Part shown: in pieces, positions 1,373-43,200 of the stretch
Numbering within the stretch: position 1 is the first letter of the stretch
Layout: every line of letters starts with the position of its first letter
Source of the DNA: an uncultured delta proteobacterium
GTDB taxonomy: Bacteria; Desulfobacterota; Binatia; JACPRU01
Direction of reading: 5' to 3'
NCBI GenBank assembly: GCA_963790365.1
Contig: CAWBOU010000001.1
Location: forward strand, 772 to 64,771
DNA: 64,000 nucleotides
Program-made: the position numbers and the translations under genes
The notes under the pieces: generated by a model
What the model was told of the DNA's origin: nothing
Databases searched by the model: none
What the model saw: the letters and a program-made list of their open reading frames with translations, nothing else

Positions 1373-2227
1373 ATGCGGGGATCGGCAGGGGTCTGGTTGC
1401 TCACCGCGGCGCTCGGCGCCGCCGAGGCATCCGAGTCGGCGAGCGCCGAAGGTGATCCGCCGCCGCGACGCCTGACGGCTTCGTTCGCGACGATCTTCGC
1501 GACCGAATACGTCGCGCAAGGGATGGTCTTCGAGAAGAAAGGCGTGATCGCCCAGCCGATCGGGCGCGTGACGCTCTCCCTGATCGACGGGGTGTCCTTG
1601 TTCGCCGGCTTCTGGACGAGCTTCCAGAGCGCGCACACCGACGCCGGCTTCGTCGATCCGCCGGACACGCGGCCGCGCATGCGGAGCTTCTACGAGCTCG
1701 ACTGGTACGCGGGGGGCTCGCTGACGCACGGCCGCGTAGATCTCACTTCTTTTTACGCCGCGTATTACTCGCCGAGCGACGCCTACGAGACCGCGAACAG
1801 CCTCGACGTCATTCTTACTTTCCTCGATCGCGGCATCCTTGCCGAGAATCTCGCGCTCGACCCGTACGTCTATTATTTCCTCGAGACGAACGAGAAGTCG
1901 GGCACCGGCATCGACGAGGGCTGGTATCTTCAATTCGGCGCCAAGCCGTCTCACCCCTTCGCGATCGCCGGGCACGAGATGCTGCTCACGCTCCCGGTTT
2001 CGACGGGGTACGGGTTCGCGGATTTCTATGCGAACGACGAGCGTTACGGCTACGTCTCGATCGGCGTCGCACCGGTGATCCCGCTCGCACCGTGGATCCC
2101 GACGACCCTCGGCCGGTGGTCGTTCACGCCGAACGTCACGTTCGTCAACCTGAACGAGGACGCGCAGGTGTTGAACGCCGACGGGAATCGGTTCTACGCG
2201 ACCGCGACGATCGCGGTCGATTTTTGA
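1373..2227 (+). CDS. Putative outer-membrane beta-barrel protein (TorF-like porin)
   Basis: ATG at 1373, signal-peptide-like N-terminus, aromatic alternating strands (YELDWYAG), C-terminal Phe. Confidence 0.65.
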   Translation: MRGSAGVWLLTAALGAAEASESASAEGDPPPRRLTASFATIFATEYVAQGMVFEKKGVIAQPIGRVTLSLIDGVSLFAGFWTSFQSAHTDAGFVDPPDTRPRMRSFYELDWYAGGSLTHGRVDLTSFYAAYYSPSDAYETANSLDVILTFLDRGILAENLALDPYVYYFLETNEKSGTGIDEGWYLQFGAKPSHPFAIAGHEMLLTLPVSTGYGFADFYANDERYGYVSIGVAPVIPLAPWIPTTLGRWSFTPNVTFVNLNEDAQVLNADGNRFYATATIAVDF

Positions 2228-2237
2228 GTTCATGGTC

Positions 2238-2475
2238 GTCGAGGCTGGCGGGCGGGGCCTCGTCTTCGCGGAAGTAAAGCGCAGCCGAGCTCTACCTACG
2301 CCGGCAGCCGGGTGTCTGGCTCGCTGCATGGCTCGCCGCTGTTGTGAGCTGCTTCCTCCGAGCCCGAGTGCGCGGACTGCGCTTTACTTCCGCGAGCCAG
2401 ACACCCGGCTGCCGACTACGCACGCGCGACGGCGAGCCATGCAGCGAAGGCGAGGCCCCGCCCGCCAGCCTCGAC
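2238..2475. repeat. Composite element of four crossing inverted-repeat pairs (four-way-junction layout)
   Basis: 2238-2269 pairs 2444-2475 (31/32); 2266-2284 pairs 2377-2395 (19/19); 2302-2324 pairs 2392-2414 (23/23); 2321-2338 pairs 2430-2447 (18/18). Confidence 0.9.
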
Positions 2476-2479
2476 CCCG

Positions 2480-3346
2480 CTACTTCCGCGGCGACGCCTC
2501 GTCGCCCTCGGGAATCGCGTCGCCGGAATCCCGCCAGCGCACGGCCTCGTGGAAGCCTTTCTCCTCGGCGAGGCGCTTGAACCACATCCCCTCCGGCGAG
2601 TGGCGCGTGATGCCGTCGAAGATCGTCGCGAACATCTGCGTCGTCGCGAGCCCCATGTTCTCGTAGACCTGATTGATCATCAGCTTCTGCATCATGAGCT
2701 GGTTCTTCGGCACGCCGGCCATGCGCTTCGCGAGCGCGTCGACGGCGGCGTCGAGCTCGCTCGGCGGCACGGCGTCGTAGACGAGCCCCATGGCCTTCGC
2801 GGTCCGCCCGTCGACGAGGTCGCCCGTGAGGAGCATCCGCTTCGCCTTCTCGGCGCCGAGCCGGAAGACCCACATCGCCGTCGTCGGACAGCCCCAGACG
2901 CGCGCGGGCGGGTAGCCGATCTTCGCGGTCTCCTCCATCACCACGATGTCGCAGCAGAGCGCGATGTCGCTGCCGCCGGCGACCGCGTAGCCCTGGATGC
3001 GGCAGATCGTCGGCTTGTAGGATCGCCAGAGCGAGAAGAAGTCGTCCGTGTTCTGCTTCATCATCCGGTAGTCGATCATCGGGTCCCAAGGATTCGTTTG
3101 CTTCGACGCCACCGACTGTCCCCCGGGGCGCTCGGCGAAGCGCTTCAAGTCGTAGCCGGCACAGAACGCCCGGCCCGCGCCTTGGAGAACGATCACGTGC
3201 ACGTCGTCGTCGGCGTTCGCTTCCTCGACGGCGAGGCGGATCTCGCGCGGCATCCGCTCGTCGATCGCGTTCAACCGTTCCGGCCGGTTCAGCGTGATTC
3301 TGGCGATTCGGTCGTTTGTTTCGTATCGCAGGGATTCGAACGTCAT
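2480..3346 (-). CDS. Crotonase/enoyl-CoA hydratase family protein
   Basis: [37 protein letters not shown]; ATG at 3346 preceded by GGAGGA. Confidence 0.93.
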
Positions 3347-3453
3347 GAGGTTTCCTCCGGGAATAAAGATCGGTTGTAGAGCGTAGATAACATGGAGGAG
3401 GTGAAGCGTGTGGGTGGATAGGCGCCGTCGGGCACGGTTCGAGACCGAGCTGC

Positions 3454-3969
3454 GTGCCTCACCTCGCGGCGCTCCATCGCTTCGCCTGCGCACTCGGCGC
3501 CGCCGCTCGAGCGGAAGACCTCGTGCAAGCCACCTGCGCCCGCGCCCTCGAGCGCTTCGACGCCTATCGCGTGGACCGGAACCTCCGCGCCTGGCTGTTC
3601 ACGATCCTCCGGAACGAGAACGTCTCCGGCTACCGGCGCCTCCGCCGCGAGCAGGATGCGGAGGGACGCCTCGCCGAGCTGCCGATCGCGGCGGTCGAGC
3701 CGAGCCTCGAGACGCTTCTGGTCGAGCGGCGCTGGTCGGAGGAGATCCGCACCGCGCTCACCGCGCTGCCGGAGAGCTACCGGAGCCCCGTCTACCTGAA
3801 GGACGTCGAGGGCTTCGGCTATCGCGAAATCGCCGCGATCGTCGGCTGTCCGCTCGGCACGGTGATGTCGCGGCTCGCACGCGGGCGGAGCATCCTCCGC
3901 GCCGTGCTCCAGCACCAGGCGCTCGAGCGCGGCCTCGTCCGTCCGGAACGCCTGCGGGAGTCCGTGTGA
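3454..3969 (+). CDS. ECF RNA polymerase sigma-70 factor
   Basis: [38 protein letters not shown]; true start may be near 3414 via a 1-nt indel. Confidence 0.92.
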
Positions 3970-40163: not shown

Positions 40164-40223
40164 TGGGGACGCTGCTTCCGATCGTCTCACCTTCAAACGC
40201 AACGCATCAGAAGCGGTGCGTCA

Positions 40224-43200
40224 GTGAGTGAGACGTTTGGAAGCAGCGTCCCTGACTACGTCGTCCCTGACTACGTCGAGCTTCGCGCGCGAAGCTCGTT
40301 CAGCTTTCTACGCGGCGCTTCCAATCCCGAGGATCTCGTCGACGAGGCGGCGCGGCTCGGTCACGGGGCGCTCGCGCTCGGCGACCGGAACGGCCTCTAC
40401 GGCGCGCCGCGCTTCTTTCAGGCGGCGAAACAGGCGGGGGTTCGCGCGATCGTCGGCGCGGACCTCGCGATGAGCGACGGCTCCTCTCTCTACGTCCTCG
40501 TCGAGAGCCGCGCCGGCTACCGGAATCTCTGTCGCCTCCTCACCCGGGCGAAGCTCCGCGCCGCGAAGGGCGAGGCACGGGTCGAGTGGAGCGACCTCGA
40601 GCCTCATGCCGAAGGGCTTTTCGCGCTCGCCGGGGGCGACGAGGGACCGTTCGCCCAGGCCGCGGCGGCGCGCGACGAGAATGCCGCGCGCGAGGTCGTG
40701 ACACGGCTACGAAGAGTCTTCGCGGATCGTCTCTACGTCGACTTGCAGCGCCATCTCGACGCCGGCGAAGAGCGGCGGAACCGGTTCCTCGCCGCGCTCG
40801 CGGAGGCCGAGCGGATCCCGCTCCTCGTCACGAACGACGTCCGGCACGCGACGCGGGAGCGCCGGGCGCTTCTCGACGCGCTCACCTGCATTCGCGAGAA
40901 GACGACGCTCGACCGCGCCGGACGGGTGCTGCTCGCGAACGCCGAGCGGCATCTGAAGCCTGCGCGCGCGATCGAACAGCTCTTCCGCGACCGGCCCGGC
41001 GCCGTGCGCGCGACGCGCGCGGTCGCCGAGCGCTGTGAGTTCACGCTCGCCGATCTCGGCTATCGTTTCCCGGATTATCCGCTGCCGGACGGCGTCTCGG
41101 CGGACGCCTACCTCCGCGAGCTCGCCTTCGCCGGTGCGCGGCGCCGCTACCGGCCGATGACCGACAAGGTCGAGCGGCAGCTCGAGCACGAGCTCGCGAT
41201 CATCGCGAAGCTCTCGCTCGCCGGGTACTTCCTGATCGTCTGGGACATCGTCGAGTTCTGCCGGCGCGAGGGCATCCTCGTGCAAGGGCGCGGCTCGGCG
41301 GCGAACAGCGCGGTCTGCTTCTGTCTCGGCATCACCGCGGTCGACGCGGTCGGCATGGATCTCCTCTTCGAGCGCTTCCTCTCCGAGGAGCGCGGCGAAT
41401 GGCCGGACATCGACATCGATCTCCCGAGCGGCGACCGGCGCGAGCGCGTGATCCAGTACGTCTACGACCGCTACGGCAAGCACGGCGCGGCGATGACCGC
41501 GAACGTGATCACCTATCGCTCGCGGAGCGCGGCGCGCGAGATCGGCAAGGCGCTCGGCTTCGCCGAGAGCGAGATCGACAAGCTCTCGAAGTGCCTCCGC
41601 TCGTACGGCTACGTCGACCAGTTCGACCGGCTGGCGCCGCAGGTGAAGCGCGCCGGGCTCGATCCCGACGCGCCACGCGTCCGCTGGCTCGTCGAGCTCG
41701 CGGGGCAGATCGAAGGCTTGCCGCGGCACCTCGGCCAGCACTCGGGCGGCATGGTGATCGCCGCGGGACGGCTCGACGAGGTGGTGCCACTCGAGCCCGC
41801 GCGCATGCCCGGCCGCGTCGTCGTCGAGTGGGACAAGGACGATTGCGCGGACCTCGGCATCATCAAGGTCGATCTCCTCGGCCTCGGCATGATGGCCGTG
41901 CTCGAGGAGGCGATTCCGCTCGTCCGCGAGCATGAGGGACATGAGCTCGATCTCGCGGCGCTGCCGGCGAACGATCCCGCGGTCTACGCCGCGCTCCAGC
42001 GCGCCGACACGGTCGGCGTCTTCCAGGTCGAGAGCCGCGCGCAGATGGCGACGCTGCCGCGCATGAAGCCGACGCAGTTCTACGATCTCGTCGTCGAGGT
42101 CGCGATCATCCGCCCCGGGCCGATCGTCGGGCAGATGGTCCATCCGTACCTGTCGCGTCGAGCCGGCCGGGAGCCCGTCACGTACCTCCATCCCGCGCTC
42201 GAGCCGATCCTCGCGCGGACGCTCGGCGTGCCGCTCTTCCAGGAGCAGCTCCTCCGCATGGCGATGGCCGTCGCGAGCTTCACGCCGGGCGAAGCCGAGG
42301 AGCTCCGGCGCGCCCTCGGCTTCAAGCGCTCCGCGCAGCGCATGGGCGGCATCGAGAAGAAGCTCCGCGCCGGCATGACCGCGAACGGCATCACCGGCGA
42401 GACGCAGGAGACGCTCGTGAAGAGCATCACCTCGTTTGCGCTCTATGGCTTCCCGGAATGCGTCGTCGGTGAGACTCGAGTGATCGACGCCGACAGCGGG
42501 CGATGGGTGACCATCGAGGACGTCGCGAAGGGACGAGCTTCGCTCGAGACGACACTCGCGTGCGGAGAAGACTTGCAGCTGCGTCGCCGGCGAGTGCTGC
42601 GAGCGATGTGTAGCGGCCGAAAGACGGTCTATCGACTACAGAGCTCGGGTGGAAAAGAAATCACGGCGACAGCCGAGCATCCGTTCCTGACGCCGACCGG
42701 CTGGCAAGCGCTTGGCGCACTTCGGAAAGGCGTTCCGCTCGCCGTCGTCCCCACCTCTCCCTTTGGGGAGAGGTCGACCGCAGGTCGGGTGAGGGGGAGA
42801 CACCGCGACGACCTCCCCCTCACCCTAGCTCTCTCCCCAAGGGGAGAGGGAATGAGAGTCGACTGGGATCGCGTGACGACGATCGAGCCCGCCGGCGAGC
42901 GCGAGACCTACGACCTCGAGATCGAAGGCGATCATAACTTTCTTGCCAACGACTTCGTCGTCCACAATTCCCACAGCGCGAGCTTCGCCCTGCTCGCATA
43001 CGCCTCCGCCTATCTCAAGGTGCATCACGCTGCTGCGTTTCTCTGCGCGCTCCTCAATCAGTGGCCGATGGGGTTCTATCATCCCGCGACGCTCGTGAAG
43101 GATGCGCAGCGCCACGGCGTGCGCGTGCTGCCGGTCGATGCGGCGCGATCGGGCTGGCTCTGCACCTTGGAACGCCACGAGACTCTCTGCGTGCGGCTCG

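Follow-up and report, generated by a model that had tools for sequence, protein, structure and literature searches.

We examined the 238-nucleotide (nt) block at positions 2238-2475 of a 64,000-nt stretch of contig CAWBOU010000001.1, which comes from an uncultured delta proteobacterium and is called the window throughout. Our best explanation of the block as a whole, to which we assign a probability of roughly 60%, is that it is a nested inverted hairpin doublet and a non-autonomous element resembling the REPINs (doublets of repetitive extragenic palindromic, or REP, sequences that form hairpins). The structural part of this reading is the firmer one, since we consider it highly probable that the block consists of two hairpin repeat units of a single kind, arranged as a nested inverted doublet. 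The preliminary description of this DNA had seen in the same block the layout of a four-way (Holliday) junction with a shared TCGC core; that layout amounts to two copies of one hairpin unit, one of them nested backwards in the other.

An inverted-repeat search recovered the four blocks (S1-S4) with the coordinates and pairing quality reported in the preliminary description, and reproduced the arm order A B C D B' C' D' A'. Repeat A (2238-2269/2444-2475) covers 32 nt at 97% complementarity, and repeats B (2266-2284/2377-2395, 19 nt), C (2302-2324/2392-2414, 23 nt) and D (2321-2338/2430-2447, 18 nt) are each 100% complementary. In every block the two half-arms join directly, with no unpaired base between them. 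When the 238 nt were shuffled 300 times, the longest perfect inverted repeat that arose was 6-13 nt, and the four inverted repeats are far beyond chance. These (near-)perfect complementarities and the seamless abutment of the blocks speak for the proposal of a four-way Holliday-type junction with a migratable TCGC core, or of a site-specific crossover at TCGC, as does the finding that 91% of cells pair under the four-helix model in the 41 copies aligned below. The order of parts in the hairpin unit accounts for the same features. A unit runs from a variable stem (P1) through GGAAGTAAAGCGCAG, a helix (P2) carrying an apical insert, and GAGCCATGRAG (after GGC or GC) to the second P1 arm. The conserved module therein is ∼26 nt long (15 + 11 conserved bases) and is split over the two strands of the stem top. 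B pairs perfectly with B' and D with D' only because the module occurs in two copies of opposite orientation; the reverse complement of a unit reads stem-D-insert-B'-stem, and inverted pairs of units therefore give crossing repeats. The contiguity of the blocks and their shared CGC follow from the junction bases that the two opposite units have in common, and the resemblance to a Holliday junction arises because the nested inverted units place the module once on each strand. The parts are as follows.

2238-2475: the whole block, 238 nt, intergenic between two convergent open reading frames (ORFs)
2238-2475, + strand: outer hairpin unit, its module read on the + strand (repeats, covariation, wobble count of G.T 21 vs A.C 8)
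2238-2269, + strand: arm A, 5' arm of the outer P1 (complementarity to 2444-2475, covariation)
2270-2284, + strand: 5' half of the outer module, GGAAGTAAAGCGCAG, which is arm B minus the core (nearly invariant in 41 copies)
2284-2288, + strand: 5' strand of P2 in the outer unit, pairing with 2430-2433 (99% of cells paired, no variation)
2285-2301, + strand: linker 1, conserved, containing CTACGC
2302-2414, - strand: inner hairpin unit, its module on the - strand, occupying the apical insert position of the outer unit
2302-2324, + strand: arm C, forming the inner P1 with 2392-2414 (23 nt, 100% complementary)
2321-2338, - strand: arm D, the complement of the inner unit's 3' module half (complementary to 2430-2447)
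2336-2339, no strand assigned: inner P2, pairing with 2372-2375 (100% paired; mutual information of 2337:2374)
2340-2371, no strand assigned: variable apical region of the inner unit (least conserved internal stretch of the 41-copy alignment)
2377-2395, - strand: arm B', the complement of the inner unit's 5' module half (complementary to 2266-2284; no covariation)
2392-2414, + strand: arm C', second arm of the inner stem (complementarity, covariation)
2415-2429, + strand: linker 2, with a CTACGC private to the window copy
2430-2447, + strand: 3' half of the outer module, arm D' (nearly invariant; contains GAGCCATGRAG)
2444-2475, + strand: arm A', 3' arm of the outer stem (complementarity, covariation)

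The block belongs to a sizeable repeat family. A BLAST search of its own genome (4.61 Mb in 69 contigs, 68% G+C, 66% complete) found 44 loci on 24 contigs in both orientations, among them the further copies of the geometry that the preliminary description had proposed looking for: 41 loci are near-full-length composites with 76-89% identity to the window copy in their best BLAST alignments, and all 41 share one architecture when aligned. The other three comprise one with a collapsed inner unit (contig C11), one that is truncated (C18:71312-71436) and one variant (C8:238651-238919). Since the 44 loci have different flanks and the 41 near-full-length ones show 76-89% identity to the window copy, the assembly chimera or fold-back artefact contemplated earlier as a source of the block is excluded. 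No ORF lies inside the 238 nt and none spans a copy at any of the 44 loci. The block is a non-coding, non-autonomous repeated element, as had been proposed, and a contig lacking it (described below) agrees with this. An ORF stop codon fell within 25 nt of a projected element end in 26 of 44 copies, on both sides in five; these counts are lower bounds, the crude ORF call filtered on third-position G+C (GC3) having overlooked the window's own left gene. An exact 23-mer scan of a genome-contig collection gave no matches.

Covariation among the 41 near-full-length copies shows which of the pairings evolution keeps. Under the crossing four-helix model, 24 of 28 pairs in helix A and 9 of 19 in helix C had changed on both sides. 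Helix B had a single compensated pair in 19, represented by one cell, and seven pairs that depart only by unpaired cells; helix D likewise had one compensated pair in 18, again a single cell, with five pairs departing only by unpaired cells and nine that never vary. A and C thus covary, and B and D are near-invariant modules whose rare changes are not compensated, the singleton changes simply breaking pairs. The nested model consists of A and C together with two P2 helices (2284-2288/2430-2433 and 2336-2339/2372-2375), the fifth pair of the outer P2 being lost in the window copy through a 1-nt deletion. In this model 26 of 32 pairs of helix A and 10 of 23 of helix C changed on both sides, and its covariation score was 0.269 compared with 0.191 under the crossing arrangement; the nested score was not attained in any of 500 shuffles and controls with slid pairings scored at most 0.078. 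A mutual-information scan that presupposed no model put the A and C pairs on top along with an unforeseen pair, 2337:2374, which was the third highest. Across the 41 copies position 2337 forms C:G (22 copies) or U:A (18) with 2374, whereas with its partner in D' the same copies give C:G (22) and U:G (18), so that 2337 covaries with 2374 and not with the arm to which a junction would pair it.

The putative core behaves in the same way. Core base 2266 makes C:G in 25 copies, U:A in 13, U:G in two and G:C in one with its A' partner, and a pair with its B' partner exists in no more than 16 of 41. Covariation of the first core base is confined to the nested helices (S1-S4 and S2-S3) and does not cross between them; this base follows A and C, as the commonest core state (19 of 41 copies) is CCGC/TCGC/GCGA/GCGG. 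An identical TCGC occupies all four blocks in 10 of 41 copies and CCGC does so in one more, leaving only CGC common to all. The shared TCGC core is therefore a correct reading of the window copy that does not extend to the family, and the arm covariation around a conserved core that had been anticipated was found for A and C, and not for B, D or TCGC itself. The CTACGC noted in both linkers fared similarly: it is indeed in both here, and across the family it recurs in linker 1 (39 of 41 copies) but in linker 2 of just one, the window copy. B:B' and D:D' are nevertheless real complementarities, and the data leave room for their use, for example in alternative folds, which counts to some degree against a purely nested account.

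The two units also differ in the strand for which their stems are suited. On the plus strand, over the related copies of the own genome, the inner 20 base pairs (bp) of stem A hold G.T in 21 cells vs A.C in eight, and stem C holds G.T in two vs A.C in 43; because the wobbles sit on the plus strand in A and on the minus strand in C, the two stems are tuned for different strands. Forty-eight simple units with stems of at least 15 bp, from the other genomes described below, gave G.T 47 vs A.C 11 on the module strand, and in 41 of the 48 the module strand folds better than its complement. One single strand is selected per unit, a different strand for each of the two. The opposite wobble bias of A and C matches what nested units predict and is difficult to explain if one and the same strand forms all four helices. 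The minimum-free-energy fold is the nested rod of A and C on the plus strand (-165 kcal/mol, z -10.6) as well as on the minus strand (-169.8 kcal/mol, z -10.8). Folding programs do not model crossing helices, and among the nested folds that they do compare, forcing B or D in place of C was 10-13 kcal/mol worse. From general helix geometry, moreover, linkers of 17 and 15 nt would seem unable to bridge the far ends of two coaxially stacked arms of ∼41 bp, in whichever of its forms the junction stacks, so that a strand forming the four-way structure probably could not close.

Single units provide a further argument. Three loci of the own genome carry one B, one D' and a 25-27-bp outer stem, without B' or D, around a ∼190-nt hairpin apical insert, and the genome overall has 41 composites vs 3-4 single-unit loci. 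The three variant loci are the following.

C8:238640-238930: single-unit variant
C37:46030-46350: single-unit variant
C47:337310-337630: single-unit variant

Their left flanks are alike for ∼20 nt past the stem; the copies may be longer than drawn, or the contexts paralogous. Single units exist elsewhere too. An exact scan of metagenome contigs with a 21-mer of the module found four contigs (L016-L019) with simple units of 81-175 nt, three of which have stems of 23-26 bp at 96-100% complementarity, with three of these four stems perfect; the fourth contig, L017, has a minimal unit of 81 nt with an imperfect 24-bp stem and module halves 6 nt apart. In L018 two units stand side by side in opposite orientation, and the complete Myxococcota chromosome that we found to carry the unit (L090, G041:C1:907683-909132) holds only four, as two inverted side-by-side pairs. 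These pairs bracket one ordinary-looking gene of ∼1.2 kb. That inverted units adjoin in both places might mean that pairing between units matters, which is the remaining point in favor of a junction. With two of its helices uncompensated but for one cell each, a common 4-nt core in only 10 of 41 copies, position 2337 covarying outside it, stems A and C tuned to opposite strands, single units lacking B' and D both here and elsewhere, and the folding cost and linker lengths noted above, we judge the Holliday-type junction or TCGC crossover very improbable.

A wider search of species-representative genomes with an exact 18-mer of the module returned at least 85 stretches. Metagenome contigs and metagenome-assembled genomes (MAGs) together yielded at least 69 units in which the second module half follows 6-110 nt further on and most of which have a flanking stem; counted among them are two matches with long gaps (168 and 343 nt) and stems of 7-8 bp, probably due to chance. 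The MAGs concerned are labelled Deltaproteobacteria (35-40% G+C, many copies), Myxococcota, Desulfobacterales, Deferrimicrobiaceae, Bdellovibrionales, Gammaproteobacteria (one with many copies), Nevskiaceae, Woeseiaceae and Legionellaceae, and one unit with almost no stem (4 bp) is labelled Coxiellaceae. We treated as chance the 18-mer matches without a 3' half in MAGs of Firmicutes, Bacteroidota, Chloroflexota and Actinomycetota and in two alphaproteobacterial isolates. Viral contigs gave three exact 17-mer matches, all lacking the 3' module half and hence chance, and no unit; plasmids gave no match to a minimal unit. These searches by construction fix the first module half as identical and impose nothing on the second half or the architecture, both of which are conserved independently of them. 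In 27 aligned units, including the inner unit of the window, 12 of 13 P1 pairs change on both sides, with a covariation score of 0.563 as compared with 0.189 for shuffles and at most 0.176 for slid controls.

The module itself appears to be structured. In its canonical form it opposes three purine-purine pairs in a row. In a divergent variant, of which one genome in the same phylum has at least 31 copies, the C:G formed by the base preceding the module and the last module base becomes G:C on both sides together, and an opposed A:U becomes G:C; in a relative from the same family, all three opposed purine-purine positions are Watson-Crick pairs. Since opposed positions switch together in variants, the module halves face each other in register between P1 and P2. 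The apical position holds unlike inserts, from 6 to 110 nt and of ∼190 nt, and seems to carry recurring passenger modules of its own: inserts from different genomes (L016, L018, L019, and the JBQTJQ/JBOICR loci, e.g. L045 and L069) have in common a sub-hairpin starting CCGGAGCCCC. This tolerance of unrelated inserts would also suit the view that the doublet is a historical accident, in which one unit landed in another and the composite was then copied, the nested form being neutral. The single architecture of all 41 composites, as from one founding event, and the family relative that has simple units only can likewise be cited for it. An accident leaves unexplained both the dominance of composites here (41 vs 3-4 single-unit loci) and the recurrence of inverted pairs in other genomes, and work on REPINs (PMC3337134) points to inverted doublets as a possible replicating form. 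We therefore consider an accident improbable, though less so than a junction.

To chart the distribution of the units, we used a covariance model (R1) of 27 sequences, namely simple units of other genomes and the inner unit of the window. It made 55 matches in the own genome, with E values of 1e-9 to 1e-14 for inner units; the match at G000:C1:3081-3177 on the minus strand corresponds to window 2310-2406 (E 3.2e-12). As the inner unit is in the model, the scores of this unit and its near-identical paralogues are partly by construction. Among other genomes of the family R1 found units in one of seven (two matches), and this carrier has simple units only; two of 150 other genomes of the same phylum had matches (31 and 3), as did one of 150 (five matches) in the phylum of the gammaproteobacterial carrier, which itself has at least 32. 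Carriers make up ∼1% of the sampled genomes with from 2 to more than 40 copies each, and the distribution is one of rare carriers with copy bursts.

Evidence of turnover came from the locus itself and from sister genera. The preliminary description had placed the block in the gap between two convergent genes, which it does fill. The flanking features, and the segment missing from a relative, are as follows.

629-2227, + strand: left flanking ORF of 532 aa without a Pfam family, ending in a stop codon 10 nt ahead of arm A
2480-3493, - strand: right flanking ORF, enoyl-CoA hydratase family (PF00378, E 8e-39), its stop 4 nt after A'
2228-2481, no strand assigned: segment absent from a related empty-site contig, which has 2 other letters instead

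Contigs of four public sequencing runs were aligned to window 1500-3200 at 85% likeness; no public run had matched more than 13% of the sampled window words. One 255-nt DNA contig (run X1, depth 5.7) joins 2227 to 2482 with 254 nt absent and two other letters at the junction. Its short side has 36 letters, and its right part, 2482-2697, shows 9 differences in 216 (∼96% identity). In this relative the two stop codons stand back to back with no hairpin. The orthologous empty site that had been suggested as a check therefore exists, as a single related metagenome contig of low depth, and because this contig lacks the block, the element was gained or lost as a unit. The right gene ends in TAG here and in TGA in the empty-site contig, the element's right edge supplying two stop-codon bases (2480-2482). 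We considered and ruled out here the possibility that the outer stem is a pre-existing terminator hairpin into which an element was inserted, since the empty-site contig has no hairpin and stems are homologous between genomes. In the other family genomes the right-hand gene has an orthologue in five, the left gene is not syntenic, and no clean empty-site comparison resulted. Between sister genera of another family (G174 vs G142), units carried by one were lacking from the other at three of three orthologous intergenic sites.

These observations are consistent with non-autonomous mobile DNA that would spread within a genome as REPINs do. A putative trans-acting factor that reads the conserved module might recognise every unit in the form of a folded single strand, the two units on their respective strands. 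That the unit is a mobile element read in this manner seems to us plausible, at slightly less than even odds. A bolder proposal, tentative and in our opinion doubtful, is that of an undescribed, ancient class of structured mobile elements. The ∼26-nt split module with its three opposed purine pairs would here cap stems of any sequence and serve as the docking or cleavage site of a hypothetical single-strand-specific enzyme, or of a self-acting RNA, that would copy the hairpin within genomes and allow it to pass between phyla. In this genome the most successful replicating form of such an element would be the nested doublet, comparable to a REPIN yet not dependent on RAYT. The module is almost letter for letter alike in MAGs of Deltaproteobacteria, Myxococcota, Bdellovibrionales and Gammaproteobacteria and in this genome.

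RAYT, the transposase family associated with REP sequences, was the candidate mobiliser that we could evaluate. Co-occurring RAYT genes had been suggested as something to look for, and the own genome has three genes with PF01797 (Y1/RAYT-type), located as follows.

C41:32037-32381: Y1/RAYT-type locus (L013-L015 series)
C12:106361-106690: Y1/RAYT-type locus (same series)
C25:22300-22623: Y1/RAYT-type locus (same series)

They do not point to the element. RAYT is not supported as its mobiliser, since the three genes carry their own repeats and no unit occurs at 11 Y1 loci. The element matches the RAYT-flanking repeats over at most 13 nt and is unrelated to them. The own genome accordingly hosts at least three REP families besides this element. 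At window ∼40165-40252 (G000:C1:40936-41023) there is an inverted pair of the 25-26-nt repeat that flanks the C25 gene, which resembles a REPIN belonging to another REP family of the conventional kind.

Several results weigh against the REPIN-like mobile reading. Each of the three PF01797 genes is flanked by an inverted repeat of its own, of 23-28 nt, with 14-36 BLAST matches elsewhere; R1 had no match within ∼1.5 kb of the 11 Y1 loci, which lie in four genomes; and two of five other unit-bearing genomes, both of them incomplete MAGs, gave no PF01797 match. No mobilising enzyme was found in a search that covered PF01797, other transposase and recombinase families not having been searched. A missing RAYT gene is possible, the genome being 66% complete. 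The one empty site, a single low-depth contig aligned at 85% likeness, shows no target-site duplication, and the sister-genus flanks are too diverged to give other than fuzzy unit boundaries. The wobble counts come from copies within one genome that are related and not independent, 36 of the 43 cells behind the minus-strand bias of stem C stem from two polymorphic sites, and tolerance of G.T does not separate single-stranded DNA from RNA. Nor does orientation help: 24 simple units of low-GC genomes are distributed 7/6/6/5 over the four arrangements of neighbouring genes, i.e. at random, and comparison with local GC skew gave 11 vs 14 with 19 ambiguous, a count that is uninformative in part because the composite holds both orientations. 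There is no link of orientation to neighbouring transcription and no positive sign of a replication-strand mechanism, for which the four units of the complete Myxococcota chromosome are too few to serve as a test.

The principal rival is a structured RNA with a cellular role, such as a protein-binding or mRNA-end-protecting hairpin or a small RNA. Multiplicity would then reflect duplication or transposition of a useful RNA gene, and the nested doublet would provide one RNA per strand. Stems that covary while the module sequence is held, strand-specific wobble pairs, and opposed module positions that switch together in variants are all as expected of an RNA, as are the three purine-purine pairs in a row, many RNA protein-binding loops holding consecutive pairs of this type. 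Many copies lie directly behind stop codons, and one metatranscriptome contig (2465-2691) reaches 11 nt into A', although as a contig only it says nothing of transcript ends or strand. On the other hand, the units show no orientation preference, whether as the 24 simple units of low-GC genomes or in the own genome, where 18 copies abutting an upstream stop codon comprise eight composites on the plus and ten on the minus strand. Seven of the 24 simple units sit in divergent promoter regions, and inspection of unit flanks by eye showed no common T-run or promoter. The unit is not retained at the sister-genus orthologous sites, one close relative lacks it, Rfam 15 has no family that matches it, and its presence in ∼1% of sampled genomes, with bursts of at least 30 copies, fits a selfish element better than a housekeeping RNA. 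On this evidence a cellular RNA appears unlikely, and we favor the REPIN-like mobile doublet.

For other cases of crossing inverted repeats in a repeat family, we suggest applying the same test before a knotted fold or recombination site is invoked. Palindromic repeats abound between genes, and their signatures are usually lineage-specific; in the present case a short module is conserved in distant lineages, with stems that drift and are compensated. The remaining interest lies in this unit family, which spans distant lineages and was not found in the catalogues searched. If a dedicated trans-acting factor exists, the family would represent a second REPIN-like system with an unknown enzyme, and if RNA is the form that matters, a widespread motif absent from Rfam 15. 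The covariance model and the copy lists make the DNA-versus-RNA question directly testable.

Comparison with known systems places the element among several without equating it with any. It resembles a four-way junction in that, on paper, four helices meet at one point without an unpaired base, and it differs in that two of the four have no evolutionary support and the strand order crosses. With the RNA families of Rfam it shares a covarying stem around a conserved irregular internal region. A search of window 1800-2900 with Rfam 15 (E up to 10) produced five matches at chance level, each far short of its gathering score; 11 simple-unit loci gave no family at the gathering threshold, and the minimal unit only sub-threshold matches to generic hairpins (miRNA precursors). 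A full-text literature search with a 15-mer motif found no paper, though supplementary files, which it did not cover, could hold such sequences; a 13-mer motif returned only matches judged unrelated from title and abstract (a plant virus, Acinetobacter biofilm), and searches by concept found nothing pertinent. In attC sites and in the subterminal hairpins of the insertion sequences (IS) IS200/IS605, a specific strand is chosen, the stem sequence is free, and structure and a few positions are fixed. The element is like them in all three respects. Unlike attC, none of the 41 copies has GTTRRRY in the last 12 nt of the element, and copies are dispersed on 24 contigs with no cassette array; unlike IS200/IS605, no unit lies beside any of the 11 Y1 loci examined. 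Miniature inverted-repeat transposable elements (MITEs) are similarly small, non-coding, dispersed and bounded by inverted repeats, and presence/absence polymorphism is seen here. The terminal repeats are, however, the least conserved part of this element, and no target duplication is visible at the one empty site, further comparisons being too diverged. We also found no parent IS with the same ends: matches to module halves outside the known loci of the own genome flank no ORF-sized gap.

The closest parallel is with REPINs, from which the element also departs in several ways. According to PMC6006769 the REP tag is GTAG or GTGG located 0-2 nt 5' of the palindrome. Here GT[AG]G occurs within 6 nt 5' of stem A in two of 41 copies and its complement 3' of A' in two of 41. 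Whereas the palindrome is the signature in REPs, in this element the stem varies and a ∼26-nt split module is held across phyla; the doublet is nested instead of side by side; and the RAYT-type genes of the own genome carry other repeats, not this unit. As described in the same paper, PMC3337134 and PMC3116915, REPINs are short, non-coding, multi-copy, intergenic hairpins in which inverted doublets are abundant and singlets rarer. The element is likewise a non-coding, multi-copy, intergenic hairpin, often situated behind genes, with no gene inside either of the two, and in both the inverted doublet is the abundant form, here at 41 of 44 loci.

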